Part shown: positions 3,613 to 22,121 of the stretch, one piece after another
How positions within the stretch are numbered: position 1 is the first letter of the stretch
Layout: each line of letters opens with the position of its first letter
Assembly: GCA_027022125.1 (NCBI GenBank)
Contig: JALVZI010000393.1
Coordinates: 1 to 25,439, forward strand
Reading direction: 5' to 3'
Source of the DNA: Anaerolineae bacterium
Lineage (GTDB): Bacteria; Chloroflexota; Anaerolineae; 4572-78
DNA length: 25,439 nt
Made by a program: the position numbers and the translations under genes
Notes under the pieces: generated by a model
Told to the model about the DNA's origin: nothing
Database searches by the model: none
What the model saw: the letters and a program-made list of their open reading frames with translations, nothing else

Positions 3613-3636
3613 GGAGTAAGAAGCAGGGAGTAGGGG
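3606..3636 (+). repeat. Short heptamer tandem array (GGAGTAG-type)
   Basis: ggagtag ggagtaa gaagcag ggagtag; an inverted partial copy (ctacttcttactcc) lies at ~3707-3720. Confidence 0.6.
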
Positions 3637-3654
3637 AAAACGCATTGAACAAAT

Positions 3655-3710
3655 GTAGGGGCAGCCCTTGTGGCTGCCCTTTTGGGGCGACCACAAGGGT
3701 CGCCCCCTAC
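3655..3710. repeat. Inverted pair of GTAG-type REP-like palindromes
   Basis: GTAGGGGCAGCCCTTGTGGCTGCCC-TTTT-GGGGCGACCACAAGGGTCGCCCCCTAC. Each arm is an imperfect hairpin starting with GTAG and the arms are inverted relative to each other. Lies between convergent genes; a near-identical copy is at 9011-9066. Confidence 0.8.
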
Positions 3711-3726
3711 TTCTTACTCCATAACA

Positions 3727-4458
3727 TCAGTTTTCAATTTTGCGGAGTTTGGGTTCCAGTTCGCGCCGAATGCCGGTGAAACGGCGATTGAAATACGGAA
3801 ACAGATACAGCGACGTGCCCAGCCCGAACCAGAAGCCGGTCACGGTGCGCAGCCACCAGTTTATCGTGCCGATGGTGGTGCCGGAATAATATTCCGGTGG
3901 CATGATGCCGTTGGTTAGCCACACCGACCACAGATTGCCCGCGCGCCACACCGTGCCGAGCCGCTCGTCTGCCATATGGCTCAGCGCATCGAAAAACATG
4001 GGGAAGACAAATAGTATCAGCAGGGCGGGGGAGATGCGCGGTTGCCACAGATAACTGCTCCACAGCAAGCCGCCCGCCAGCAGCCCGATGAAAATTGCCA
4101 CCATACGGTGGTTCATCGCCATTTTCCAGCCCATTTCCGCATTGCCGACAAATGCCCGCAAGTTGTACCGATTGCCCCCCTGTGCCAGCACATCGTCCAG
4201 CGAGTAACTTTTCACCCCGCCGTCGGGACTGAACAAAAAATAACTGCGCTGCGGCAGTTGGTGGTCGTGCGGGGCGTATTGCCGGTACAGCCAGCGGGCG
4301 GCGTCTGTCCACCCCAGCGACATCACCAGCGGCGCGGCAATGGCACCCGCCAGCACCAGCGCGAACACACCGTTCACCGCCAGTTCCCAGTGGCGTGCCA
4401 GCCATAAAATTCGCTTTTGCAGAAAGAGGATGAGGGATTTGAAAAAAGGGGCGTTCAT
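3727..4458 (-). CDS. DUF2085-like predicted membrane protein
   Basis: 243 aa with several hydrophobic helices; HQLPQRSYFL matches the DUF2085 (C)HQxPxRS motif; FVGNAEMGWKMA..R follows. Confidence 0.7.
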   Translation of the reverse strand: MNAPFFKSLILFLQKRILWLARHWELAVNGVFALVLAGAIAAPLVMSLGWTDAARWLYRQYAPHDHQLPQRSYFLFSPDGGVKSYSLDDVLAQGGNRYNLRAFVGNAEMGWKMAMNHRMVAIFIGLLAGGLLWSSYLWQPRISPALLILFVFPMFFDALSHMADERLGTVWRAGNLWSVWLTNGIMPPEYYSGTTIGTINWWLRTVTGFWFGLGTSLYLFPYFNRRFTGIRRELEPKLRKIEN

Positions 4459-9153: not shown

Positions 9154-10260
9154 ATGGATATTTATATTGAAAAGATGGCAAAAGCCATTATTCACTATTC
9201 TACAGATGTGAAACCCGACGAGCGCGTGCTCATCCGTGTCACCAGCCCAGCGGGACAGCCGCTGGCACAAGCCCTCTATCGAGAGGCGCTGCGTACCGGT
9301 GCGTATGCGTTTACGTATATTCACATGAGCGATGAGAACAGTTTGGCGATGGAAGCCACCGATAATCTTGACCTACTTGCCGCGCCCAACCCCATGCTGG
9401 AATTGATGTACCAAACCTGCGATGTCGTCATCCGCGTGGACGCATCAGAAAACCCCAGCGCTCTTTCTGACTACCCCACCGAATTGCAGCGGGCGCGCGG
9501 TAAAAGTGCCGGCGCAATCCTGAAAATCCAAATGGAACGCGAAGGCAACGGCAGTATGCGCCGCTGTTCCACACTTTTCCCCACGCAGGGATACGCACAA
9601 GCGGCGGGTATGTCGCTGCAACAGTATGAGCGGTTTGTATACCATGCCTGTAAACTGCATTTGGATGACCCCGTCGCCGGTTGGTTGGCACTTTCAAAAG
9701 AACAGCAGCGGCTGGTGAATTGGCTGCAAGGGAAAAAACACCTCAAAGTCACGGGCAAAAATATCGATATGGAAATGTCCATTGAAGGGCGCACGTTTAT
9801 CAATTCCAACGGCAAATCGAATTTTCCCAGCGGCGAAATTTTTACCGGACCGGTGGAAGACAGCGTGAATGGCTGGGTAAATTTCACCTATCCGGCATAT
9901 TACGGCGGCAATCGGGTGGATGGCGTTTCGCTGGCATTTAAAGACGGGGTGGTGGCCAAAGCCACTGCCGAAAAAAACGAAGCGTTTCTGCTGGCTGCCA
10001 TCGATTCCGACCCCGGCGCACGGCGGCTCGGCGAATTTGCCATCGGCACCAACCGCGATATTCAGCGGTTTACCGGCTCCATCTTGTTCGATGAAAAAAT
10101 CGGCGGAACCGTGCATATGGCGCTGGGGCAGGGATATCCGCACACCGGCAGCGTCAACAAATCTTCCATCCATTGGGATATGATTTGCGATATGCGCGAC
10201 GGCGGTGAAATTTGGGTGGATGGCGAACTGTTTTACAGAAACGGCGAATTTGTGGTGTGA
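9154..10260 (+). CDS. Aminopeptidase, peptidase family M29 (AmpS/AmpT-like)
   Basis: NFPSGEIFTGP, LGEFAIGTN, LFDEKIGGTVHMALG and SIHWDMI motifs. Start set at ATG 9154 (AGGGG upstream); the ORF is open from 9127. Confidence 0.93.
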   Translation: MDIYIEKMAKAIIHYSTDVKPDERVLIRVTSPAGQPLAQALYREALRTGAYAFTYIHMSDENSLAMEATDNLDLLAAPNPMLELMYQTCDVVIRVDASENPSALSDYPTELQRARGKSAGAILKIQMEREGNGSMRRCSTLFPTQGYAQAAGMSLQQYERFVYHACKLHLDDPVAGWLALSKEQQRLVNWLQGKKHLKVTGKNIDMEMSIEGRTFINSNGKSNFPSGEIFTGPVEDSVNGWVNFTYPAYYGGNRVDGVSLAFKDGVVAKATAEKNEAFLLAAIDSDPGARRLGEFAIGTNRDIQRFTGSILFDEKIGGTVHMALGQGYPHTGSVNKSSIHWDMICDMRDGGEIWVDGELFYRNGEFVV

Positions 10261-10331: not shown

Positions 10332-10516
10332 CTTCACCCACCGTTTGGCACGCGCACATTCCACCCACGCTCATTTCGACCATTGGACGAAAATGAGTAT
10401 AATCCCCATAACTATTTTTGTTGAGAGTGCACACAAATTTCCCATAAATTGGTTGCAATTACGCAATATGTGTAGCAAAAATTGTGTTTTTGCACAAATG
10501 CGCTAGCCATACGCCT

Positions 10517-13500
10517 ATGAACAAGCATACCACCGAAATATTAACACGCATAAAACCATATTTGCCGCCGACACTCGACTTTTCTGCTGCCAAGAACCTG
10601 TCGGTGGACGATGCAACGACCATCGCCATTCATTTAGCATCATTGCGACAGGGTATTGCCACCTACCTGCCACGTTACCTGGTTGAGCAGATAGCACAAA
10701 ATCCTGAATCGGGGCAGGTGCGCGGCGAGTTCCGGTTTGGTGCAGTGATGTTCGCCGATGTATCCGGGTTCACCGCCATGTCTGAAAAACTCTCGGTATT
10801 GGGCAAAGAAGGCGCGGAAGAGATTACGGGGATTGTTAACGGTTATTTTGATAAAATGTTGCGCATCAGTTCAAAATTTGGCGGCGACTTGCTGAAATTC
10901 GGTGGAGATGCACTGCTACTTTTTTTTGAAGGCACAGACGGCGCGCACCGTGCGCTGACCACCGCTTGGGCAATGCAAGCCGCTATGGAGCAGTTTGCGC
11001 GGGTAAAAACCTCGCAAGGGACTTTCCCGCTGCGAATGAGTATCGGCATTGGAACCGGCAATATCTTTTTGGCGGAGTTGGGCACGCCGGAAAATATGGA
11101 ATATGCGGTGATGGGGCAGGCGCTTATCAATATGGCGCGAGCCGAAAGTATTGCCAACGCCGGCGAAATTGTGGTTGATGTGGCAACCCGCCGCGCCACC
11201 GAGTCGGTAGCAGCGTATGAGCCGGTTAAAAACTTTTGGCGCGTGACAAACCTGCTCGAAACACTCGGACCGGTGGCATATTCCAGTAAAATTTATCCGC
11301 GCCTCCCCAATCTGGTCGAGTCATCCATTGAAACATTGCTTGAATTTGCGTTGCGGCAGGTCAAAATCGTCAATGGGTTGAAGCCGTTTTTGCCCGAAGA
11401 ATTGCTGCACCAACTCATTCTCAATCCGCAGAACCCGCTGTTGCCCGGTTCGCATCGCCCCGTTACGGTAATGTTTGCCAACTTTTTTGGCATTGATGAC
11501 ATCATCGAAGCGTTGGGCGAACCGCACCAAAACACCATCACCCAAATTTTGAACGACCATTTCGTGACGATGAGTCGCATCATCAACCAATTTGGTGGGG
11601 TGGTGAATAAAGTTGATACCTACGCCATCGGACACCGCATTATGGCGTTGTTTGGCGTGCTGCGGGCACACGAAGACGACCCCCAGCGAGCCGTCCGCGC
11701 TGCGTTGGCGATGAACACGGCGCTGGCGGATGTGAACCGCCGCACCGCCGCACTTTTGCGGAAAATTTGCCCAATCGGCGAAAAATTCGGCGATATGCCG
11801 CTAAAACAGCGCATCGGGCTGAACAGCGGATTCGTCTTCGCCGGAAATGTCGGTTCGGCAACGCGGCACGAGTACTCGGTGATGGGCGATGAAGTCAATC
11901 TGACAGCGCGGCTGATGGGTGTGGCAAAAGAGGGAGAGGTGCTCATCAGCCACAGCACCGCCCGGCGGGTAGAAGGCGCATTCGACTTGCGCGAAAAAGC
12001 CCCGGTGCGCGTAAAGGGCAAATCGCAACCCGTACGAAATTTTGTGGTGCTGGCAGCACGGCAACAGCCATCGCGCTGGAAGAATCTTTCTGAATCGCCG
12101 ATGGTGGGGCGCGATGACGAATTGCAAACGGGGTTAGCCGCCATCGAGCAGGTTTTGCAGGGGCGCGGTACAATTCTGGTCATCAGCGGGGTGTCGGGTA
12201 TCGGCAAAACCCGTTTCGCCGAAGAATTGGCGTATCGCGTCGAACAGCGCGGGGTGGATTTGTTGGCGGGCATCTGTCTGTCATACGGCAAAACGATGAC
12301 CTACCATCCGTGGGCAGATATTCTGCGCAGTCATTTCGGTATTGCTCAAAACGATGATATTTCGGCGCGGGTGGCGGCGGTTAGGCGCGGTATGACTGCC
12401 ATCGGCGAGGGGGATTGGACGCCGGTTATTGCCGATGTGCTGGGGCTGGATGTGCCCGATAATGACCTGACCCGCGCCATTGACGCCAAATTGCGCCGTC
12501 AGCGCATTATGGATTTGACGGTAAAATTGCTGCAAACCCGCGCCGTGCAAAAACCGCTGCTGCTGGTGCTGGAAGATGCTCACTGGGCAGACCCCGCTTC
12601 GATGGAACTGATAAATTATGTGGCGCGAAACATTGCCGACCATCCGATTTTGCTGGTGTTGCCCCACCGCACCGACCCAGATTTGCCCGATTGGACGGCA
12701 TTTCCGCACGCCATACACATCCCACTGGTAGATTTACCCGATGATGCCTGTTTGGAAATTGCGCGGGGGATGGTCGGCGGGGTGGAACTTCCGGCGGAGT
12801 TACAGCAACTCATCCTGTCGAAAGGGGAAGGCAACCCGTTTTTTATCGAAGAGGTGGTGCGGGTGCTGATTGACAATCGGGTCATCAAAAAAATGCCCGA
12901 TGGCACATGGAAACTCGCCGGAAATTTGGCGGGGATAGAACTCCCCGATACCATTCACGGCATTATCATCAGCCGCATTGACCGCCTGCTGGAAATTGAC
13001 CGCCGCATTTTGCGGGTGGCATCGGTGGTGGGGCGTATTTTCGCCTATCGGGTGGTCAGCAGTGTGCAAAATTATGGCAGCACAGAACCCATCGTGCGCG
13101 AACATTTGGATTATCTGCAAAATTTGGGACTGACCGAACTCTTTCAGGTTGAGTCGCTGCTGTACCGGTTCAAACATCTCACCACCCGCGAAGTGGTGTA
13201 CGAAAGTTTGTCGTTTGAGCAGCGGCGCACACTGCACCGCCGCATCGCCGATTTTTATGAGCATGTTTTCGCCGATTCATTGGGTGAACGGATAGATTTA
13301 CTGGCATATCATTATTTTGAAGGACATGCGTGGATGAAAGCAATAGAATACAATTTGCGAGCCGCCCGGCACGCCCGGCGAGAATTTGCCAATGCCACCG
13401 CCGTTGAAGCCTACCGGCGGGTGCTGGAATCTGCCGCGAATGTGGAAGATACTGATACCACCGCCGCCCGACTGGAAGCACACGAATCGCTGGGGGATGT

Positions 13501-14713
13501 GCTGATGCTGATGGGGCAGTTCGATGATGCGCTGGCACATCTGTCGCAGGCGCGAGATATTGTGCAATCAACCGGCGATGCGCCCCGGCTGGTGGATATT
13601 TTCCGCAAAATTGCCGCTGTGTACGAGCGCCGCAGCGAGTTCGACACGGCGTTTGAGTGGCTGGAGCGGGGGTTGTCGCACCTGCCCGCCGATACGCCCA
13701 CCGTCGAAGCGGCGCGCATATATCTGCTCGGCGCGGGTGTTTTTCGGCGGCAGGGGAAAAACGAAGAGGCAATTCAATGGTGTGAAAAAACACTGCATGT
13801 TGCTGCGTCGATTGATTCTCGCCTTAGCCTGCAAACCATTGCGCAAGCCTATTATAATTTGGCGGGAATTTACACGCGGTACGGTGATTTTCAGCGGGCG
13901 ATACAGTTTTCGCTCGATAGCGTGAAAGTGTATCAGCAAATAAACGATGAGGTAGGACTTTCGCACGCCTATAATAATTTGGGAAATGTGTACAGCGATT
14001 TGGGCGATTGGGAAAAAGCCACCGAAGCCTTTGAACGCAGTCTTGCTGTAAAACAAAAAATCGGTGATGTGCTCTATCAAGGCTTCATCAGCAACAATTT
14101 GGCGAACATTCAAATGAATCGCGGCAATTGGGCAGATGCCGAGCGACTGTTCTCACAGAGTTTGGATGTGTGGAAACAACTGGGGGCATCACTGCCGCAC
14201 GCTGTAACCGCCAGCAATTTGGGGCAATTGCGACTCTACCAGCAAAATTTCCCCGAGGCGAAACATTTGCTGGCAACCGCCGAAGAAATTTTCGCCAGCA
14301 TCGAGTCAGAGGACTTTTTGCCGGAGTTGGAACGCCGCTGGGCTGAATATCATTTACTCACCGGCGATACCGATGCCGCGCTGAAACACATCCGGCGGTC
14401 GCTGGAGTTGGCGGTTCAGCAAGAGGCAAAATTGGAAGAAGGGATGTCGTGCCGTGTGCTGGGGCTGGTTCAAATGGAAAATGGGCAAAAAAAACTGGCG
14501 GAAATCTCGCTGCAGCGAAGTTTGAGAATTTTAACGGAACTGAACAGTACTTACGAAATTGCGAAAACAAATGTGGCATTTGGTTTATTATGGCAAAATG
14601 AAAATCCGGCAGCGGCAAAACGGTATTTGCAGGTGGCAATCGAAACATTCCGCTCATTGGGGGCAAAGACAGATTTGCGCCACACTGAAAATCTCATCAG
14701 CCACTTGCCATAA
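10517..14713 (+). CDS. Tandem class III adenylate cyclase - STAND/AAA ATPase - TPR protein (soluble adenylyl cyclase-like)
   Basis: Cyclase 1: MFADVSGFT, LLKFGGDALL. Cyclase 2: VMFANF, NKVD, EYSVMGDEVNLTARL. Walker A GVSGIGKT, Walker B LLVLEDAHWAD, GNPFFIEE; C-terminal TPRs (AYNNLGNVYSDLGDWEKA). ORF open from GTG 10484; ATG 10517 preferred. Confidence 0.92.
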   Translation: MNKHTTEILTRIKPYLPPTLDFSAAKNLSVDDATTIAIHLASLRQGIATYLPRYLVEQIAQNPESGQVRGEFRFGAVMFADVSGFTAMSEKLSVLGKEGAEEITGIVNGYFDKMLRISSKFGGDLLKFGGDALLLFFEGTDGAHRALTTAWAMQAAMEQFARVKTSQGTFPLRMSIGIGTGNIFLAELGTPENMEYAVMGQALINMARAESIANAGEIVVDVATRRATESVAAYEPVKNFWRVTNLLETLGPVAYSSKIYPRLPNLVESSIETLLEFALRQVKIVNGLKPFLPEELLHQLILNPQNPLLPGSHRPVTVMFANFFGIDDIIEALGEPHQNTITQILNDHFVTMSRIINQFGGVVNKVDTYAIGHRIMALFGVLRAHEDDPQRAVRAALAMNTALADVNRRTAALLRKICPIGEKFGDMPLKQRIGLNSGFVFAGNVGSATRHEYSVMGDEVNLTARLMGVAKEGEVLISHSTARRVEGAFDLREKAPVRVKGKSQPVRNFVVLAARQQPSRWKNLSESPMVGRDDELQTGLAAIEQVLQGRGTILVISGVSGIGKTRFAEELAYRVEQRGVDLLAGICLSYGKTMTYHPWADILRSHFGIAQNDDISARVAAVRRGMTAIGEGDWTPVIADVLGLDVPDNDLTRAIDAKLRRQRIMDLTVKLLQTRAVQKPLLLVLEDAHWADPASMELINYVARNIADHPILLVLPHRTDPDLPDWTAFPHAIHIPLVDLPDDACLEIARGMVGGVELPAELQQLILSKGEGNPFFIEEVVRVLIDNRVIKKMPDGTWKLAGNLAGIELPDTIHGIIISRIDRLLEIDRRILRVASVVGRIFAYRVVSSVQNYGSTEPIVREHLDYLQNLGLTELFQVESLLYRFKHLTTREVVYESLSFEQRRTLHRRIADFYEHVFADSLGERIDLLAYHYFEGHAWMKAIEYNLRAARHARREFANATAVEAYRRVLESAANVEDTDTTAARLEAHESLGDVLMLMGQFDDALAHLSQARDIVQSTGDAPRLVDIFRKIAAVYERRSEFDTAFEWLERGLSHLPADTPTVEAARIYLLGAGVFRRQGKNEEAIQWCEKTLHVAASIDSRLSLQTIAQAYYNLAGIYTRYGDFQRAIQFSLDSVKVYQQINDEVGLSHAYNNLGNVYSDLGDWEKATEAFERSLAVKQKIGDVLYQGFISNNLANIQMNRGNWADAERLFSQSLDVWKQLGASLPHAVTASNLGQLRLYQQNFPEAKHLLATAEEIFASIESEDFLPELERRWAEYHLLTGDTDAALKHIRRSLELAVQQEAKLEEGMSCRVLGLVQMENGQKKLAEISLQRSLRILTELNSTYEIAKTNVAFGLLWQNENPAAAKRYLQVAIETFRSLGAKTDLRHTENLISHLP

Positions 14714-14743
14714 AATGTTTCGAATTATTGGAGGATGGAACCC

Positions 14744-17700
14744 ATGAAACAACAGATAAAACTTTTGACGGCGATTTTCGGCGGTGTTTTTGCCGTGTTG
14801 GCGGTATCGCTAATGTTGCAGGTTGTCGGTGGGAAAATCGCGCCGGTATACGCCGATAGTGGCGCGATAATCCGTGTAGCGCGCAGCGGTACAAACGTTA
14901 ATACTTGTGGCGCGGAAGCTCAACCATGTCAAACTATTCAGTATGCAGTTGACCGTGCCGCACCGGGGGATGAAATTCAGGTGGCAGAGGGATATTACAC
15001 GGAATGGTCATCGCGGAACGGTATGACCGCCACACTGTTCATCACCAAATCGATTGTTATTCGCGGCGGGTATACCACTACCAATTGGAGTCTGCCTCCA
15101 CAACCGTTTACCCAAGTTGTTACACTTGATGCGCAGGGTAGGGGGCGGGGTGTGGTTATTATGTCAACCACTGCCACGCTTGAAGGGTTCGACATTACTG
15201 GGGGCAACGCCTTGGGAAACAGTGGCGGTGGCGTTTATGTTTATAATGCCCCCAGTTCATTTTTGCGGAATAATATTATCCACGAAAACTCTGCCGATTT
15301 TGGCGGTGGTATCTATGTTTTTAATTCTAGTGGCATCTCTTTGGAATGGAATGATATTTTCTCAAATACGGCGCAAATAAAAGGTGGGGGGATCTTTTTG
15401 GTTGATACAGCGGCGTTGGTGAATAGTAACCATATTTTTCAAAATACATCAAATATAAATGGCGGCGGTTTAGCCATTGGATTTTCGGAAGTTTCTACCG
15501 GTACCTTGCAATTGTGGGACAATATGATTGCCGATAACCGCGCTAACTCGGCGGGGGGGGGCATATATTTCCACAATACAGTTTCTGGAGTGGGTACAGA
15601 GGCTGTCAATAATGTGGTGATAGATAATATGCTGACCGGCACGTCTGCCAGCGGTAGTGGTATTTTTATGGCGAGCAATGGTACTGCGCCGAAATTTTTT
15701 CACACAACCATTTCGAACAATACCGGTGGCGACGGCATCGGAGTGCATGTTGAAGGGTCTTCTCCCATCGAATCGGTGTGGTTCACCAACACCATCATCG
15801 CCGACCAAAATACCGGTGTGAAAGCGTTGAACATTTCGGCGGGAACAACCGTCACGGTGAATATAGACCATGTTTTGTGGTTCAACGTGCTAACCCCCAC
15901 AGTCAATGGTAGTGGGGGGCAAGTGAATACTTTTAATGAAACTTTCGCCGACCCGATGTTCGACCCGGATGGGTTCCATCTCACTGCGGGGTCGCAGGCG
16001 ATAGACCGGGGTGTGGAAGCCGGTATCCCCACCGATTTTGATGGTGATTTCCGTCCCTTTGGTGCGTCGCCCGATTTGGGCGCAGATGAGTATAGTTCTG
16101 GGGGCTTTTCTCCGGTGACAAATGTATCGCTAACGGGACCATTTACGGCGTTGGTGGGCAGTGATGTTACGTTTGTGGCAACGGTTGACCCGCCGGATGC
16201 CACCCAGCCGATTCATTACACCTGGACGGCAACCGATAAGGGCGTGCAAGAGTTCGATACAAACCTTGTATCGGCAGTCACCATACATTGGACTTCTCCC
16301 GGACAGAAAAATGTTTTCGTGCGGGCGGAAAATGGCACCACTGCCAGTGCCACCGCATCACAGACCATCGCCATTTTGGGAGATACCTTCGAACCGAATG
16401 ACGTTTATACCGATGCCTACCCCATTGTGCCAGATACGCCGTACCTGTCGTTCATCAGTACTTTAACCGATGTGGATTGGTACACATTCAACATTACCAG
16501 GACTTCTAAAATTACGGTTACATTGGAGGGAACGCCGTACCTGCCCGATGATTACGACCTGTTTCTGGTTTCGCCGCTGCCGCCAACCCCATACCCCGAA
16601 AGCGATGTATTGAGCGAGTTTACCGATGGGGTGGATGTAGATGCTGTAGGCAATTTGTCATCCATCGGCAATTTATCGTCCATCGGCAATCTGTCGTCCA
16701 TCGGCAATCTGTCGTCCATTGGCAATCTGTCGTCTATCGGCAATTTATCGTCCATCGGCAATTTGTCATCTATCGGCAATCTGTCATCCATTTCCACCAA
16801 CCCCATCACCTACCCGGAATACATCCGCACTACGGCTTATCTCCCCGGCGATTACTATTTGGTAGTGGCGCGCGGCGAAAGTGCCGCACCGCATTACAAG
16901 CCGTACACGCTCACCCTGACCACCCAACCCATACCCTCGCCCACCTGCCAGTGGGTTGCCCCGCTGTCTGGCACGGTTGTTTTACCGCCGAACCCACCCG
17001 CGCCGTATCCCGATGCACATATCGGCGGCGAAACACTCATCTTGTGGAATTACAGCCGTATGGCACAGACATATGGTATCACCGCAGCGAATACTTTGAG
17101 TGGCACACTCAAAACACTGGCAGATACCGTCACTGGCACACTGGTTTCGGTGGAGCATAACCCTTCTGTGGCGACGGCATATAACAACTGGAATGCCAAC
17201 TATTGCAACCCCCGCGCCGCCAATGCGGTGGGCGATGCCATCAAAACCGCGTGGATGCAAAATTTCAGCGGAAAATATGTGGTGCTGGTCGGTTCGGATG
17301 AGATGATACCCTTCTACCGCTCGCCGGATATGACCACCATTGCCAACGAGCGCGAGTTTGCCCCGCACTCGCAACTGTCAGACGGGGCAATTTGGGGCGC
17401 ACTCAATCAGGGCTTTTTGCTCACCGACAATTTCTACGGGGTTCGCAAGCGCGGATTCTTGATGCGCGGGCACGGGCTGTGGGTTCCCACACTGGCGGTG
17501 GGGCGACTGGTGGAAACACCGGCGGACATCAAAAAAATGGTGGATGGTTATTTGAACAAGCCTGTGATTCCGGTGGATGATGTACTCATCACCGCGTATG
17601 ATTTTCTCACCGACAGCGCCCGGCTCATTTCCGATACCGTATCAACATGGAACGTGACCACCCAAACCACGCTCATCAATGAAACATGGGTCGTCACCGA

Positions 17701-19126
17701 TGTGGTGAATGCGTGGACGCAATATGTGCCGGGGCGCGATGTCGTTTCGCTAAACGCCCATTTCGAACCGTGGCGCGCCCTGCCCGCCGCCCCCAGCACC
17801 GGCTACGACGCCTTCGACCTGTTTTACAATTTCCACATTACCAACAGCAATACCATCAGCGACAGTCTGATTTTCTCGATGGGCTGTCATGCCGGGCTGA
17901 ATATGCCCGATGCGGATGTGGATACGCCGTATATTGATGCAGGGGGCAACCCGTGGGAGGTGAATCCCGATTTTCCGCAGGCGTTGGCGCAAAAAGCCAG
18001 CGTGATGGTCGGCAATACGGGGTACGGTTACGGGGTGGATGACTCGCCCGAATATACCGAATGGCTGATGTACCTGTATGCGAAAATGCTCGGTTCGCGG
18101 CACAATATGCCGGTGGGCGAAGCCCTGCAACGGGCAAAACGCTATTACATCGGTTCTGCGCCGAGCGGCGGCATTTCGGTGTATCACGAAAAGGTTTTGC
18201 TGGAAGCCACGCTGTACGGCTTGCCCATGCAGCAGGTGGATGTACCCAAACCGACCCCCATCAGCAATAGCGCCATCAGCGGGCGGTTCAGCGGAATGCA
18301 GTCTGCGCCACGCCCGATTGCTGCAACGGCATCAAATTTCATCAGTGCGACCATTACCCTGACACCGACGCTCAATCAAAGCGGCAACGGTTCCTATTAT
18401 TCACTGGGCGGCGAAATTCAAGCCAGTCCCGGACGACCGATACAGCCGCGCGGCACGCTGTTCATCAGCAGTAATGCCAATGGATTGCTGCCGCATGGCG
18501 CGGTACTGTTCGACGCTACCTTCACCGAGACCACCACCTTCAACCCGATGGTTACTCGTCCCATTACTGATGTCACCCTGTCCGAACCGGACCTGAATGT
18601 CGGTGGATGGTTCCCCAATAAATTGTGGGCGGTGAACCGGTTCGGGAAAACCAATGCAGGTGACGATGACCGGCTGGTGATTGTTGGCGGGCAGTTTAAA
18701 ATGACCGATTTCACAAACGGGGTTGGCACGGAACGAGTTTTCACCCGGATGAATCTGCGCGTTTATTACAGCGAAGATGGCAAAGATTACCAGCCGCCCG
18801 TTATCTGGAAGTCTCGCGGCGTGAAGTTCGATGACAAAATGATTGTGGAGGTCGATGTGGAAGACCCGTCGGGAGTGCAGGGGGTGGTGGTGAGTTATCG
18901 CCCTTCGGCTGACCCGCTGGCGATTCGCAGTCTCGAACTTTCACCCGCCGAGATTGACAACTTTGGCAATGGCATCTGGCGCGGCGAAATTCCGGGCGAC
19001 CCGAACGTGAGTTTTTATGTGCAGGCGGTGGATGCTGCGGGGAATGTGCAAATGGCGGGCAATAAAGGATTGTCTTTCGCCCCCGATGAACCGGTGATGA
19101 CCTACCTGCCGCTGGTGTTGAAGTGA
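14744..19126 (+). CDS. Large secreted/surface mosaic protein: signal peptide, parallel beta-helix, PKD-like, PPC-like domain with hexapeptide-repeat insert, clan CD C25/gingipain-like protease, C-terminal YLPLVLK motif
   Basis: GGAGG 9 bp before ATG 14744; signal peptide ending VYA-DS; GGGIY beta-helix repeats and DFDGDFRPFGASPDLGADEY; DTFEPND...DVDWY...DYDL (PPC-like); VVLVGSDEMIPFYR, LAVGRL, NAHF (His), SMGCHAG (Cys), VGNTGYGYG. Confidence 0.85.
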   Translation: MKQQIKLLTAIFGGVFAVLAVSLMLQVVGGKIAPVYADSGAIIRVARSGTNVNTCGAEAQPCQTIQYAVDRAAPGDEIQVAEGYYTEWSSRNGMTATLFITKSIVIRGGYTTTNWSLPPQPFTQVVTLDAQGRGRGVVIMSTTATLEGFDITGGNALGNSGGGVYVYNAPSSFLRNNIIHENSADFGGGIYVFNSSGISLEWNDIFSNTAQIKGGGIFLVDTAALVNSNHIFQNTSNINGGGLAIGFSEVSTGTLQLWDNMIADNRANSAGGGIYFHNTVSGVGTEAVNNVVIDNMLTGTSASGSGIFMASNGTAPKFFHTTISNNTGGDGIGVHVEGSSPIESVWFTNTIIADQNTGVKALNISAGTTVTVNIDHVLWFNVLTPTVNGSGGQVNTFNETFADPMFDPDGFHLTAGSQAIDRGVEAGIPTDFDGDFRPFGASPDLGADEYSSGGFSPVTNVSLTGPFTALVGSDVTFVATVDPPDATQPIHYTWTATDKGVQEFDTNLVSAVTIHWTSPGQKNVFVRAENGTTASATASQTIAILGDTFEPNDVYTDAYPIVPDTPYLSFISTLTDVDWYTFNITRTSKITVTLEGTPYLPDDYDLFLVSPLPPTPYPESDVLSEFTDGVDVDAVGNLSSIGNLSSIGNLSSIGNLSSIGNLSSIGNLSSIGNLSSIGNLSSISTNPITYPEYIRTTAYLPGDYYLVVARGESAAPHYKPYTLTLTTQPIPSPTCQWVAPLSGTVVLPPNPPAPYPDAHIGGETLILWNYSRMAQTYGITAANTLSGTLKTLADTVTGTLVSVEHNPSVATAYNNWNANYCNPRAANAVGDAIKTAWMQNFSGKYVVLVGSDEMIPFYRSPDMTTIANEREFAPHSQLSDGAIWGALNQGFLLTDNFYGVRKRGFLMRGHGLWVPTLAVGRLVETPADIKKMVDGYLNKPVIPVDDVLITAYDFLTDSARLISDTVSTWNVTTQTTLINETWVVTDVVNAWTQYVPGRDVVSLNAHFEPWRALPAAPSTGYDAFDLFYNFHITNSNTISDSLIFSMGCHAGLNMPDADVDTPYIDAGGNPWEVNPDFPQALAQKASVMVGNTGYGYGVDDSPEYTEWLMYLYAKMLGSRHNMPVGEALQRAKRYYIGSAPSGGISVYHEKVLLEATLYGLPMQQVDVPKPTPISNSAISGRFSGMQSAPRPIAATASNFISATITLTPTLNQSGNGSYYSLGGEIQASPGRPIQPRGTLFISSNANGLLPHGAVLFDATFTETTTFNPMVTRPITDVTLSEPDLNVGGWFPNKLWAVNRFGKTNAGDDDRLVIVGGQFKMTDFTNGVGTERVFTRMNLRVYYSEDGKDYQPPVIWKSRGVKFDDKMIVEVDVEDPSGVQGVVVSYRPSADPLAIRSLELSPAEIDNFGNGIWRGEIPGDPNVSFYVQAVDAAGNVQMAGNKGLSFAPDEPVMTYLPLVLK
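16649..16792 (+). repeat. Coding tandem repeat, 8 x 18 bp, (GNLSSI)8
   Basis: Eight in-frame units GGC AAT YTR TCR TCY ATY; every difference between units is synonymous. Confidence 0.97.
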
Positions 19127-19192
19127 TAAAAATGGGTATGGTTCATTTTGGCTGACAATTATCTTTACAGATGACCGGCTGTTGCCAATGTA

Positions 19193-19255
19193 GAGCAGGA
19201 AGCAAGGAGCAGGAAGCAAGGAGCAGGAAGTAAGAAGTAGGGAGCAGGGAGCAAG
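19193..19255 (+). repeat. Heptamer tandem array (RAGYARG x9)
   Basis: gagcagg aagcaag gagcagg aagcaag gagcagg aagtaag aagtagg gagcagg gagcaag. Confidence 0.8.
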
Positions 19256-19295
19256 GGAGTAACTGTTTAACGCACGCTACTCGTCTCAAACAATC

Positions 19296-19388
19296 GTAGG
19301 GGCGGCTCGCGAGCCGCCCCTACGGACTTTGGCGCGAATTGACCGATTTTTTTCGGTTTCGTAGGGGCACGCTGCAGCGTGCCCCTAT
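19296..19388. repeat. Dyad of two GTAG-type 28-bp palindromes
   Basis: GTAGGGGCGGCTCGCGAGCCGCCCCTAC (perfect palindrome, 19296-19323) and GTAGGGGCACGCTGCAGCGTGCCCCTAT (19361-19388). Confidence 0.85.
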
Positions 19389-19727
19389 ATTTTTCCCTGC
19401 CGATTTCACCCTTCAATACGCACTGCAGGCTACTCAGGATACGTTTTTCCCCTCTCCCCTGAACAGTTACTTTTTGTGAACAATAGTTGCAATACAGATT
19501 ATTCGTTCCTTTCCCAATCTGTTGTAGTGTTTGTACGCAACGCAAAACATCTACCTACTGCGAACACTGCCGGTCGCCCAAACCGGCACGTTTCACGAAA
19601 ATCGTTGGCAAAAGCGTGAAATCTGTAAAGATGATTTTAGGGCAACGAACCGTGCCGACCGTGCCGACGTACATAAACTTGTTGTGCAACTTGACAATTG
19701 TTAGATCCTGTGTTATTTGTTATTTAA

Positions 19728-19966
19728 CTGATGTTACGCAGCAAGCATGTTGACAAACATTTACCGGGTCACGAAAGATTATATATTGGGTCAAACGCAA
19801 AAACGTAGGGGCACGCTGCAGCATGCCCCTACGAAGCCGAGAGAAGCGGTCGGTTTTTCGAAAAATAACGGCAAAATCCGTAGGGGCGGCTCGCGAGCCG
19901 CCCCTACTTTCGCTATTATATTCCGGCTTGCCGGGGGAACTCAAATTCTCAACTGCGTAACATCAG
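19728..19966. mobile_element. MITE-like non-autonomous element, 239 bp
   Basis: Perfect 14-bp terminal inverted repeats CTGATGTTACGCAG (19728-19741) and CTGCGTAACATCAG (19953-19966), flanked directly by the repeat ATTTAA (19722-19727 and 19967-19972); no transposase ORF inside. Confidence 0.72.
19805..19907. repeat. Dyad of two GTAG-type 28-bp palindromes (inverted relative to 19296-19388)
   Basis: GTAGGGGCACGCTGCAGCATGCCCCTAC (19805-19832) and GTAGGGGCGGCTCGCGAGCCGCCCCTAC (19880-19907). Confidence 0.85.
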
Positions 19967-20040
19967 ATTTAATCCCAATTGCCTTGCGTAGCGTTACTTT
20001 AGAAACAACCGAATAATTTTCAATTTGGCTAGGAGGAACT

Positions 20041-20388
20041 GTGAAAAAAGTTTTGTATTTCTCGATTGTGTTGGCTTTAGTTGTGTTAATGTTGCCTGTT
20101 TTAAGTGGTGGCTGGCAAGGGGGAACGTCCATCGGCACCATTAACTCCATTGGAACTATCAACTCCATCGGTACCATTAACTCCATCGGCACGCTGAATT
20201 CCATCGGTACCATTAACTCCATTGGAACTATCAACTCCATCGGTACCATTAACTCCATCGGCACACTGAATTCCATCGGTACCATTAACTCCATCGGCAC
20301 GCTGAATTCCATCGGCACCATTAACTCCATTGGAACTATCAACTCCATCGGTACCATTAACTCCATCGGTAACCATAGTAGCTTTTAA
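20041..20388 (+). CDS. Secreted hexapeptide-repeat microprotein: N-terminal signal/hydrophobic leader + (SIGT[I/L]N)13-SIGNHSSF
   Basis: AGGAGG RBS (20031-20036), GTG start, MKK + hydrophobic stretch, 13 repeats with synonymous codon variation in this frame, intrinsic terminator downstream. Confidence 0.85.
20128..20370 (+). repeat. Coding tandem repeat, 13.5 x 18 bp
   Basis: Units TCC ATY GGH ACN (ATY AAC | CTG AAT); unit order a b c d c b c d' c d a b c. Confidence 0.97.
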
Positions 20389-20433
20389 AAAAGCCGTAAT
20401 GTTTAATACTTCGCTTTAAGTGCAATTGGGAAA

Positions 20434-20463
20434 AAAAGAACGAGATAGATGTCTCGTTCTTTT
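20434..20463 (+). terminator. Intrinsic (possibly bidirectional) terminator after the microprotein gene
   Basis: AAAAGAACGAGA-TAGATG-TCTCGTTCTTTT: 12-bp stem including flanking A/T tracts. Confidence 0.75.
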
Positions 20464-20522
20464 CTTGTTGGGTGACGTTGACACTTTTAGTTGTTTGTAA
20501 AAGTGGGGAAGAACCTGAAATT

Positions 20523-21683
20523 ATGAAAATAAAAACTATTGTTGTTCAAATTCTCTTGCTTGCGTTGTGGTTTTTTATCGGGTGGCGTGTGCGAGAACTG
20601 ACGTTGAGTTCGGATATAATCTCGTTGGAGCAATTACGGACAGTTATTGAAAATAATGTTTATTATAAAAACCCTCCACCTTCACCATCAGAACTGACTT
20701 TTGCCGCTTCTCGCGGCATGGTAAATTTGACAGACGACCCGCGTGCGGTGTTTATGGAACCCAATGTTGCCAAGGAATATATGAAAGACAAACAATCATT
20801 ACGAGCCGGTATCGGCTTTAAAATTGCCCACGAAGATGACCGGTGGGTAGTAACATTTGTCAACCCCGGTGAACAAGCAGAAAAAGCCGGACTTAAAGTT
20901 GGCGACATATTACTAAAAATTGACGATACACCGGTAGAAGATTATACGACATATATTGAAATCAGTATGTTAATCAGAGGTGAACCGGGAACGCCGGTAA
21001 CATTAACCGTTTTGCGAAATGGGCAACAAGTCCGCATTGATGCCATCCGTAAAAATCCTGAACAGGTAAGAATTCGTATGATTGGGACTGATATTGCTTA
21101 TTTGCGACAAGACGAATTTTCTATCCCGACCGCAGACTTGATGAAAAATAAATTGCAAAAATTACTTGATAATAATCCAAAAGGTTTGATTTGGGATTTA
21201 CGTTATAATGGCGGCGGTACGAAAATATCGCTGTTAAGAATTATGGGCTTCTTTTTTAAAGACGGTCCCATATTTTACGAAAAAACCAGAGATGGCGAAC
21301 CTCGTCTCAACCTTATTGAACCATCTGATTTCACCACAGATATACCGCTGGTTGTTTTAATTGATAAAAATACATATTCTTCACCGGAGGTTGCCTCTTC
21401 GGCAATTCAATACCGGCATCGTGGGATATTGGTTGGCGGGTCAACATTTGGTAAAGGCACAATAACTCAATTCTTCCTGTTTGCCAATGGCAGTGCGTTG
21501 CAGTTGAGTACTGAACACTGGCTGACACTCTCAAAAGAGTGGCTGGAAGGAAAAGGTGTATCTCCGGATATATATATTCAAGACGACCCTCAAACGCCCG
21601 ACGACGAACAATTGAACTGTGCAATTGCAATTTTGCGAAATCAAAATCAATCAGAAGATAATCTCAATAGCCTATGCCGGTAA
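20523..21683 (+). CDS. S41 family C-terminal processing peptidase with PDZ domain (CtpA/Prc-like)
   Basis: N-terminal hydrophobic anchor, PDZ (GIGF...AEKAGLKVGDILLKID), WDLRYNGGG, TYSSPE (catalytic Ser position), TFGKG (Lys), GVSPDI. ATG 20523 preferred over the ORF start at 20472. Confidence 0.9.
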   Translation: MKIKTIVVQILLLALWFFIGWRVRELTLSSDIISLEQLRTVIENNVYYKNPPPSPSELTFAASRGMVNLTDDPRAVFMEPNVAKEYMKDKQSLRAGIGFKIAHEDDRWVVTFVNPGEQAEKAGLKVGDILLKIDDTPVEDYTTYIEISMLIRGEPGTPVTLTVLRNGQQVRIDAIRKNPEQVRIRMIGTDIAYLRQDEFSIPTADLMKNKLQKLLDNNPKGLIWDLRYNGGGTKISLLRIMGFFFKDGPIFYEKTRDGEPRLNLIEPSDFTTDIPLVVLIDKNTYSSPEVASSAIQYRHRGILVGGSTFGKGTITQFFLFANGSALQLSTEHWLTLSKEWLEGKGVSPDIYIQDDPQTPDDEQLNCAIAILRNQNQSEDNLNSLCR

Positions 21684-21856
21684 ATCCGAATTGGAGAGAA
21701 TTATTGTAACCATGCAGTGTAGGTAACACAGCATTTAATCGTGGTTATCATTTTTAGCCACGAGTTTTCACGAATTTCACTGATTTTTTCTTAAAATTCG
21801 TGTAACTGCTCACTGTGTTGTGTTCGTCTCGAACTAAAGTTCAAGGATCAAAACTC

Positions 21857-21907
21857 AAGCCGACTTAAGTCGGCTTTGGCTTTGAGCGCGGAAATTTATT
21901 TCCGCGC
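21857..21907. repeat. Pair of palindromes (REP-like)
   Basis: AAGCCGACTTAAGTCGGCTT (perfect 20-mer) and GCGCGGAAAT-TT-ATTTCCGCGC. Confidence 0.65.
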
Positions 21908-21968
21908 GTTGACCGGTTACCGGTATCCGGCAAGGGTTTGATTTCCCCCTGCAAGCCAAAATACAGAC

Positions 21969-21996
21969 GCAGGGGCGGCTCACGAGCCGCCCCTAC
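21969..21996. repeat. GTAG-type palindrome, diverged copy
   Basis: GCAGGGGCGGCTCACGAGCCGCCCCTAC; two differences from the 19296 and 19880 copies. Confidence 0.8.
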
Positions 21997-22121
21997 AATG
22001 GTTCAGAATCTGTGTTCATCTGTGTACTATTTTTACCGCATCTGAACACGGTTTCGCGTTGCCAAAATTCTCATCAAAACAGCCGCCGCTGAACGGGCGG
22101 CGTTTTGCTGCCCGCCGCTCT

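Follow-up and report, generated by a model that had tools for sequence, protein, structure and literature searches.

Perfect oligopeptide arrays in an Anaerolineae contig very probably belong to two separate modules, each combining a TPR-STAND protein with an exported array and a protease

The window analysed here, a 25,439-nt stretch of DNA from an Anaerolineae bacterium of the Chloroflexota (assembly GCA_027022125.1, contig JALVZI010000393.1, positions 1 to 25,439), carries two arrays of short peptide repeats in neighbouring genes. One array, (GNLSSI)8, lies in a secreted C25-like cysteine protease. The other, (SIGT[IL]N)13, fills a small protein predicted to be exported, the microprotein, whose gene is followed by that of an S41 protease (Table 1). 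An earlier reading of this DNA (the original prediction) had combined the three genes into one candidate extracellular system in which the microprotein might co-assemble with the array of the C25-like protease. Our analysis suggests instead that the window holds two separate modules of one common design, and we regard this as very probable. The first module (10484-19126) in all likelihood consists of a cyclase-STAND-TPR gene and the secreted C25-like protease with its GNLSSI loop, and the second (20041-21683) of the microprotein and the S41 protease. The two modules are undescribed and related: each combines a TPR-STAND protein, an exported perfect oligopeptide array and a protease, and their hosts are filamentous Chloroflexota. 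These pairings recur across many genomes. The identity of the units within an array is kept by selection, while the unit itself differs among species and paralogs. The second module is lineage-specific and is found in a low-GC stretch flanked by repetitive extragenic palindromic (REP) repeats. Of the original prediction, the link between the S41 protease and the microprotein stood and the co-assembly of the C25-like protease with the microprotein did not.

Both arrays are real, coding and selected, as had been proposed. Tandem Repeats Finder placed the array of the C25-like gene at 16649-16791 (18-bp period, 7.9 copies, score 202) and that of the microprotein gene at 20128-20376 (18-bp period, 13.8 copies), the latter with a 108-bp super-period (score 428). 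The C25 array contains seven distinct DNA units that encode one peptide (59 synonymous and 0 non-synonymous differences), and a related array at locus L192 contains ten (172 and 0); the zero counts inside perfect runs follow partly from the definition of a run, and what is informative is how many distinct DNA units encode a single peptide. In the microprotein array, the variable columns at codon positions 1, 2 and 3 numbered 1, 0 and 5, and pairwise comparison of codons gave 189 synonymous against 30 I/L differences. This concentration of unit differences at third codon positions indicates that the proposed frames are the translated ones in both arrays and that purifying selection acts on them.

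The 1463-aa C25-like protein begins with a hydrophobic leader, which is followed by a parallel beta-helix, a choice-of-anchor Q domain, the array-bearing PPC-like domain, the C25-like cysteine peptidase, Ig-like C-terminal parts and a terminal YLPLVLK. Peptidase_C25 (PF01364) matched residues 811-938 (E 2e-8, 34.3 bits against a Pfam cut-off of 23), the match spanning only profile positions 28-144 of 374. The putative catalytic His (NAHF/NSHF) and Cys (GCH[AS]G) were invariant in eight aligned C25-like homologues, down to 31% identity. The leader, the Pfam match and these two residues agree with the earlier description of a surface protein with a His/Cys protease domain. No NCBIfam or Pfam model for a type IX secretion system C-terminal domain, as in gingipains, matched the protein, whose end is YLPLVLK. 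An AlphaFold2 model built on a 52-sequence alignment showed a confident PPC jelly roll. In this model, the first seven units of the array were coil (pLDDT, the predicted local distance difference test score, <50; model residues 97-133) and the eighth GNLSSI unit was a native PPC strand (model residues 138-143). On this model, the seven GNLSSI units form an exposed, probably disordered loop extruded from the PPC-like domain.

Arrays of this kind are a regular feature of the C25-like family. The family comprises at least 485 loci in representative genomes, of which we listed and examined 79; all 79 were from Chloroflexota metagenome-assembled genomes (MAGs), mostly Anaerolineae. In 69 open reading frames (ORFs) the PPC-like domain was present from its beginning; counting perfect arrays of at least three units, we found one at the same PPC site in 66 of them, with hexapeptide units in 64 and pentapeptide units in two, and the site was kept down to ~30% protein identity. 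The units vary among species and include GNLSSI, GNLGAI, GRMSSI, GQISNI, GQLGNV and GRIGAI as well as the Trp types GGWASI, GGWWST and GQWAAT. Four congeners of the window's organism have an eight-unit array at the orthologous site, made of GNLSSI in three and of GNLGSI in one. From one congener to another, the eight units of the array switched in concert (GNLSSI, GNLGSI, GNLGAI), with two base changes per unit. Paralogous arrays can differ by just one residue in each unit: two C25-like loci of genome G442 carry AMFGS (L249) and AMFGN (L251), each array being internally perfect, and two loci of the MAG CAZYSK01 carry GQMSAV (L179) and GQMSSV (L184), each with its own STAND gene. No array was present in the second C25 paralog of the genome to which the window belongs.

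The partner of the C25-like gene is a STAND gene. In the window, the STAND protein matched the Pfam families Guanylate_cyc, AAA_16, TPR_12 and TPR_MalT, and in 50 of the 79 loci a homologue lay no more than 400 bp from the C25-like gene. No gene clusters other than STAND and C25-like were conserved around these loci. Among NCBIfam models, the one that the window's STAND matched best was the TOMM (thiazole/oxazole-modified microcin) kinase/cyclase fusion TIGR03903, at residues 350-1316 with E 3e-85 and 287.1 bits, below the cut-off of 705.75; the second NCBIfam relative, HaaT TPR, was also below its cut-off. Both of these sub-cut-off relatives are proteins of neighbourhoods of ribosomally synthesised and post-translationally modified peptides (RiPPs).

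The second module is defined by a clade of S41 proteases. We built a maximum-likelihood tree of 67 S41 sequences, eight of them with a microprotein known at that point and 59 others. The eight microprotein-linked sequences, including that of the window, formed one clade with 100/100 support, and none of the 59 others had a microprotein beside it; the same was true of 29 further control S41 loci. With two later-added relatives, L245 (a heptapeptide array) and L246, ten clade members were examined. Nine adjoin a gene for an exported microprotein of perfect short repeats, and the contig of the tenth (L246) ends after the signal peptide of the downstream ORF. The microprotein genes beside the clade S41 genes lie on the same strand and encode a signal peptide followed by perfect short repeats to the stop codon. 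Their units are (GGWVWS)5 in L052, (GGWLWS)8 in L053, (GWAGPM)9 in L054, (GFSWAD)10 in L055, (GGLLWS)6 in L056/57, (GG[YF]TWA)6 in L049 and the heptapeptide (GGY[NA]SWS)n in L245, beside (SIGT[IL]N)13 in the window; the 77-aa microprotein of L048 has a period of 6/12 (IGKVGF/IGRMS[AS]). Synonymous and non-synonymous unit differences numbered 44 and 0 in L053 and 105 and 9 in L055. All seven Trp-type microproteins stop in one repeat phase, ...W[SA][GD]. These results bear out the proposal that the S41 protease and the microprotein belong together.

STAND-TPR genes also neighbour most of the S41-clade loci, namely L048, L052, L053, L054, L056/57 and the window. The type of STAND varies: cyclase-AAA16-TPR in L052, AAA16-TPR in L053 (the N-terminal part lies off the contig), BTAD-NB-ARC(-TPR) in L054 and L056/57, and a MalT-like TPR-BTAD protein in L048. 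The microprotein adjoins the STAND-TPR gene in L052, L053, L054, L056/57 and L048, and in the window the C25-like gene stands between them. The STANDs of L052 and L053 aligned with residues 669-1405 of the window's STAND (E 1e-58), and both loci have a GAF-HD phosphodiesterase-type gene between the microprotein and the S41 gene.

In the window itself, the microprotein has the marks of a genuine gene whose product is predicted to be exported, as had been proposed: a leader consisting of MKK and a hydrophobic core, a ribosome-binding site, a hairpin after the gene and the codon pattern described above. The hairpin has a minimum free energy of -22.3 kcal/mol (z -2.3) and was not listed by a simple consensus scan. 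The S41 protein has an N-terminal transmembrane helix, a PDZ domain (matches to PDZ_6, PDZ_2 and PDZ) and an S41 domain (PF03572, E 2.7e-36). It scored 183.6 bits against TIGR00225 (prc), below the subfamily cut-off of 218.6. Its putative Ser/Lys dyad, Ser286 and Lys311, which are 25 residues apart, was invariant in a 12-member clade alignment.

Table 1. Location of features in the window. Positions count from the first nucleotide of the window.
Feature	Position	Strand	Basis
Cyclase-STAND-TPR gene: two cyclase domains, AAA16 STAND ATPase, TPR sensor region (residues ~930-1409); cytoplasmic	10484-14713	+	Pfam
C25-like gene, secreted 1463-aa protein	14735-19126	+	ORF, Pfam, homologue alignment
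(GNLSSI)8 array in PPC-like domain, residues 639-686	16649-16792	+	Tandem Repeats Finder and translation
YLPLVLK C-terminal heptapeptide, candidate sorting tag	19103-19123	+	Homologue conservation
Low-GC stretch holding microprotein and S41 genes	19297-21995	.	GC ~0.38-0.47 against 0.52-0.60 in flanks
AGGAGG ribosome-binding site, 4 nt 5' of microprotein GTG start	20031-20036	+	Direct sequence reading
Microprotein gene, 115 aa, predicted exported	20041-20388	+	ORF, codon analysis
Microprotein, Sec-type leader	20041-20127	+	Translation
Microprotein, (SIGT[IL]N)13 array	20128-20361	+	Translation
Microprotein, tail SIGNHSSF		+	Translation
Terminator-like hairpin between microprotein and S41 genes, 13-bp stem and U-rich tail	20434-20470	+	Minimum free energy
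S41 C-terminal processing protease gene, membrane-anchored; 386 aa from the ATG start; alternative GTG start at 20472	20523-21683	+	Pfam

Several searches sought relatives of the window's microprotein and S41 protease. A word-indexed search of 5.8 billion proteins returned no homologue of the microprotein at E<=0.001, and the ESM Atlas gave no usable features for it. Searching 40 relatives with tblastn found no microprotein; the matches were only to C25-like arrays or to off-frame readings of unrelated repeats. A degenerate DNA pattern for IGTINSIGT[IL]N gave three single, unrelated matches in representative genomes. A match to the NCBIfam thiocillin RiPP model (E 0.007) was below cut-off and was dismissed as an effect of composition. 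The S41 protease likewise had no orthologue in the 40 relatives (best identity 37%, to paralogs), nor one at the level of the clade in 400 sampled genomes of the phylum. A single-protein scan of genome contigs with it gave one match at 29% identity, and its metagenome relatives were 33-42% identical.

One could hold that the arrays are functionless, slippage-born low-complexity sequence and that the microprotein ORF is spurious. The 18-bp tandem repeats are open in several frames, and the microprotein lacks a homologue in a large protein database. We consider this explanation extremely unlikely, as it is contradicted by the codon and comparative data. Unit differences fall almost entirely at third positions of the proposed frame, the copy number of eight is conserved across species and the site of the C25 array persists to ~30% protein identity. 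The microprotein gene also has its leader, ribosome-binding site and hairpin, and an analogous microprotein accompanies every examined member of the S41 clade, in the tenth as a truncated leader only.

The two modules were not found side by side elsewhere. Four congeners keep the eight-unit C25 array, and the contigs of three of them reach past the C25-like gene, allowing the downstream flank to be compared. In all three, the C25-like gene lies directly beside gyrA with a gap of 112-560 bp and with neither a microprotein nor an S41 gene between. A repeat microprotein was present in 0 of the 79 other C25-like loci (1.23 Mb). The original prediction had itself counted a lack of linkage between the protease and the microprotein in other genomes as grounds for rejecting the pairing, and no such linkage was found. 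Its expectation that the units of the two arrays would co-vary also failed. In genome G441, the microprotein has GG[YF]TWA and a C25 paralog has DIPLA, and we found no specific unit match within one genome, either there or in the window's genome, whose second C25 paralog is without an array. The meeting of both modules in the window is lineage-specific and possibly coincidental.

The adjacency of the modules also depends on how the contig was assembled. Five REP hairpins bound and interrupt the low-GC stretch (19297-19322, 19362-19387, 19806-19831, 19881-19906 and 21970-21995). The REP-like element is a perfect hairpin, GTAGGGGC-N12-GCCCCTAC, that occurs in two sequence variants and in 104 copies in the assembly. 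Public contigs break at REP copies and none bridges the path from the C25-like gene through the microprotein and S41 genes to gyrA; the adjacency of the three genes therefore rests on the original assembly. Sequencing depths in the likely source run were similar (34.9 and 30.9). In a joint from 19412 to 22007, the shorter side measured only 18-23 nt, and this joint is probably REP-to-REP. Directly 3' of the C25-like stop codon, at 19193-19262, lies a purine-rich tandem repeat with 7/14/28-nt periods, GAGCAGGAAGCAAG, in ~4.4 copies.

What the two kinds of array do share is a common repertoire of units, which comprises Ile-Gly and Trp types of 5-7 residues. Written as G-T-I-N-S-I, the microprotein unit of the window fits the C25-array consensus G-x-[ILV]-[SGN]-[SNA]-I, and so do the units of L048 (compare GRMSSI and GNLSSI). 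Units of the Trp type were found in C25 arrays as well as in the microproteins linked to S41. Together, the consensus fit and the Trp types suggest that the arrays draw on one repertoire. The S-I-G core that the original prediction had taken for a specific pairing reflects this repertoire. In the window's genome, the unit sequence occurs at only two places, both in exported proteins. Apart from TCCATCGG, the tail SIGNHSSF of the microprotein and the C25 array have no codons in common; their Ser codons differ, so that there is no homology at the DNA level.

These findings bear on the proposal that the microprotein forms a beta-solenoid or amyloid polymer with which the GNLSSI insert would co-stack, anchoring a fibre or switching the protease, with S41 trimming the subunit. 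We consider it very improbable. Its merits are the adjacency and common orientation of the C25-like and microprotein genes, the fit of both units to G-x-[ILV]-x-x-I with the S-I-G that they share, the real link between S41 and the microprotein, and a structural model. AlphaFold2 without an alignment predicted the microprotein as a regular triangular beta-helix (pLDDT 84) with one 3-residue strand per six residues, in keeping with the solenoid form that had been suggested. Foldseek neighbours of this model were non-significant and comprised bactofilin, GlmU/LpxA/LpxD helices (E>=0.2, TM-score <0.2), the CsgA fibril (E 0.63, TM-score 0.14), FapC (E 1.6) and ice-binding proteins. In ESMFold2, within a complex run, the pLDDT of the microprotein was 45, and the Pfam Hexapep profile matched neither the microprotein nor the C25-like protein at E<=0.01. 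Perfect repeats are prone to over-confident solenoid models. On the other side, the C25 array, for which co-stacking had been suggested, was modelled as coil in a disordered loop. The eight-unit array is conserved in congeners that have neither microprotein nor S41, the C25 loci contain no microprotein, the units mismatch in G441 and the adjacency runs through REP repeats. Most S41-linked microproteins consist of Trp-type units unlike any adjoining array, and SIGNHSSF uses other Ser codons than the C25 array. A co-folding run that joined S41 with the PPC array and the microprotein scored 0.00, a value that is uninformative in either direction.

The reading that seems most economical to us, and that we tentatively consider plausible, takes the arrays of both modules for multi-copy oligopeptide precursors; the protease of each module would cleave its array, and the TPR-STAND proteins would detect the products. 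The PDZ domain of S41 would bind the free C-terminus of the microprotein, and S41 would clip off unit after unit, each cut of the perfect array regenerating an identical C-terminus for the enzyme. The C25 domain would cut its own loop equivalently. The released 5-7-mers would be species- or paralog-specific signals that, after uptake, would be read by the TPR sensor of the adjacent STAND. The STAND would answer through cyclic nucleotide synthesis or through a DNA-binding BTAD domain. We count in favour of this account the selection for identical units within an array, the variation of units between species and paralogs, the constant stop phase of the Trp-type microproteins, the exposed C25 loop and the hairpin after the precursor gene, and as precedents the duplicated pheromones of Phr propeptides and the RiPP-neighbourhood relatives of the STAND.

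Other observations weigh against precursor arrays. None of the RNA runs holds the locus, and the C25 loci have no oligopeptide importer or other conserved third gene. The TPR region and the AAA16 domain were 71% and 74% identical, respectively, in congener G004, whose unit is changed, and 66% and 69% identical in G006, whose unit is the same. In this comparison, which covers three congeners only and is confounded by phylogeny, TPR divergence tracked overall divergence and was not greater where the unit had changed. The microprotein of the window is itself atypical, ending out of phase (tail SIGNHSSF) and containing no Trp, and its S41 partner sits on a long branch (1.49). The beta-helix model of the microprotein suits a structural role.

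Such a role was considered in its own right. The arrays might be structural or recognition elements, acting as zippers that pair homotypically, as tags by which filaments recognise kin or as beta-solenoid fibres, with the proteases only maturing them or turning them over. Identical units that differ among species would fit register-independent self-pairing, the hexapeptide period and the AlphaFold2 beta-helix would fit a solenoid, and the hosts are filamentous, multicellular Anaerolineae. We nevertheless consider a structural or recognition role unlikely. A single solenoid geometry poorly accommodates units that are 5, 6 or 7 residues long at equivalent positions, and five units, as some arrays have, would not suffice for a stable helix. 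Disorder is predicted for the C25 array, and the ESMFold2 confidence for the microprotein was low. Natural solenoids and amyloid subunits have imperfect repeats, and the constant cytoplasmic TPR-STAND neighbour would be left unexplained.

The arrays might also regulate the proteases. The GNLSSI loop would then be a pseudo-substrate or bait that keeps C25 inactive until it is cut, and the microprotein would be a decoy or competitive substrate that titrates S41. The array does sit immediately before the catalytic domain, in a domain of the pre-peptidase type (PPC), the microprotein is always found with one particular S41 clade, and its constant C-terminal phase would fit recognition by PDZ. This explanation appears quite unlikely to us: one bait site would suffice, and the identity of the units, the differences between paralogs and the STAND-TPR partner would all be left unexplained.

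Further observations were made on the proteins and loci of both modules. The YLPLVLK tail was conserved at the C-terminus of all aligned C25-like homologues. The pattern [YF]LPL[VI][LVMF][KR] within four residues of the C-terminus was found in 30 of 5820 genome ORFs (stop-terminated, at least 150 aa), typically as V/I-YLPLVLK, and the reversed motif in none. A tail of this type is present on both C25-like paralogs of the window's genome and on an unrelated 1994-aa protein in L048. YLPLVLK, which is not followed by a transmembrane helix, looks like a candidate tag for sorting or anchoring of a kind not described before. A distant C25-like clade (L205, L207, L210, L212, L213, L217, L221, L229, L231, L235-L238 and others) has an odd central array unit, G[DN]L[VTAI]D[LIM], flanked by about five perfect units on each side. 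The symmetry of these arrays suggests a hairpin or a special central site of cleavage or turning.

In L048, three small ORFs follow the MalT-like STAND, at 9447-9566 (39 aa, ending in (YVYT)n), 9619-9861 (80 aa, with a weak Frankia_peptide match) and 9944-10177 (the 77-aa microprotein); together they might form a cluster of small peptides. In the metagenome contig L055, the microprotein-S41 pair is immediately followed by the gene of an S8 subtilase (2269-4014), whose product may be a second extracellular protease of the module. Many Anaerolineae genomes have tandem pairs of ordinary S41 proteases (for example G014:C359, 2942-3967 and 4223-5233, and also G012:C63 and G016:C24), and these are unrelated to the microprotein-linked clade. 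Outside the clade, the S41 gene of L244, on a contig of P0087, translated to its database protein only with TGA read as Trp; the source of the contig is therefore an organism in which a stop codon is reassigned.

Full-text searches of the literature gave no description of these modules, in line with the earlier view that the gene set is undescribed, and the nearest precedent is the Phr family of Bacillota, in which tandemly duplicated pheromones occur in propeptides that are cut by extracellular proteases (PMC11343458). As in the Rap-Phr and wider RRNPP(A) systems, a small gene for a Sec-exported propeptide lies beside that of a cytoplasmic TPR receptor, and one genome may have several paralogous pairs with slightly different peptides. 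In those systems, extracellular proteases release peptides of 5-7 residues; for the arrays studied here such a release is proposed. Phr propeptides with more than one copy of the pheromone are on record, with two copies there against 5-15 perfect ones here. Unlike in Rap-Phr, the array either fills the mature protein entirely or forms a loop within a large protease. The cutting enzyme comes in cis, as an S41 gene or a fused C25 domain, and the phylum is Chloroflexota. The receptors also differ. RRNPPA receptors combine TPR with a helix-turn-helix or a phosphatase and have no NTPase, whereas the proteins here are AAA_16 or NB-ARC STANDs with a cyclase or BTAD.

Multi-copy precursors are known from eukaryotes, in yeast alpha-factor with Kex2, fungal Kex2-processed repeat proteins and FMRFamide-type neuropeptides. 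The arrays resemble these in being secreted tandem identical units with a dedicated protease, whose peptide identity is kept while the DNA drifts synonymously. Eukaryotic precursors have spacers and dibasic cleavage motifs, whereas the units here abut without such a motif, the hosts are bacteria and the protease families are different. Curli (CsgA/CsgB) and Fap share with the microprotein a small secreted repeat protein and, in the AlphaFold2 model, a beta-solenoid, and CsgA and FapC were among its weak Foldseek neighbours. Their repeats are imperfect and ~19-40 residues long, unlike the perfect 6-residue units of the window, and the Foldseek matches were non-significant (E 0.6-1.6, TM-score <0.2). 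Curli and Fap also need a nucleator paralog and an outer-membrane channel; neither is present here, where 14735-21683 holds only three genes. In bacterial amyloid signalling sequences (BASS), a motif is shared between the N-terminus of a STAND/NLR protein and the C-terminus of an effector, whereas the STAND here starts with cyclase domains. The TOMM kinase/cyclase fusion of TIGR03903 is likewise encoded next to ribosomal peptide precursors. The window's STAND differs from it in lacking a kinase domain, and neither a cyclodehydratase nor another modifying enzyme lies nearby.

Beyond the STAND-C25 pair itself, the analysis adds that the peptidase carries a selected, perfect and hypervariable array, and that an S41-microprotein module with the same kinds of array and STAND partner exists. 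The pattern is widespread (at least 485 loci in the C25 form) and sharply defined by arrays of identical units, units that vary among species and paralogs, and protease and TPR-STAND partners. If the arrays are zippers or solenoids instead of precursors, the strict selection for identical units remains an unusual, unexplained constraint. The Chloroflexota are a large, mostly uncultured phylum of filamentous bacteria that are dominant in sludge, sediments and vents, and we know of no peptide-based communication system in them. It is conceivable, though we think it rather doubtful, that the modules represent a previously unrecognised form of cell-to-cell peptide signalling in these filamentous bacteria, in which arrays of 5-15 identical units are cut by a cis-encoded protease and sensed by STAND TPRs, and in which the two channels of the window, GNLSSI and GTINSI, might converge on one cyclase-STAND receptor. 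To our knowledge, the activating ligands of STAND-TPR and soluble-adenylyl-cyclase-like proteins are uncharacterised, and peptide signalling of this kind would assign ligands to this class. If the arrays are multi-copy signal precursors, Rap-Phr-type logic would be extended to a new phylum, to a new class of receptor (STAND/NLR-like ATPases with cyclase output) and to a new design of precursor.

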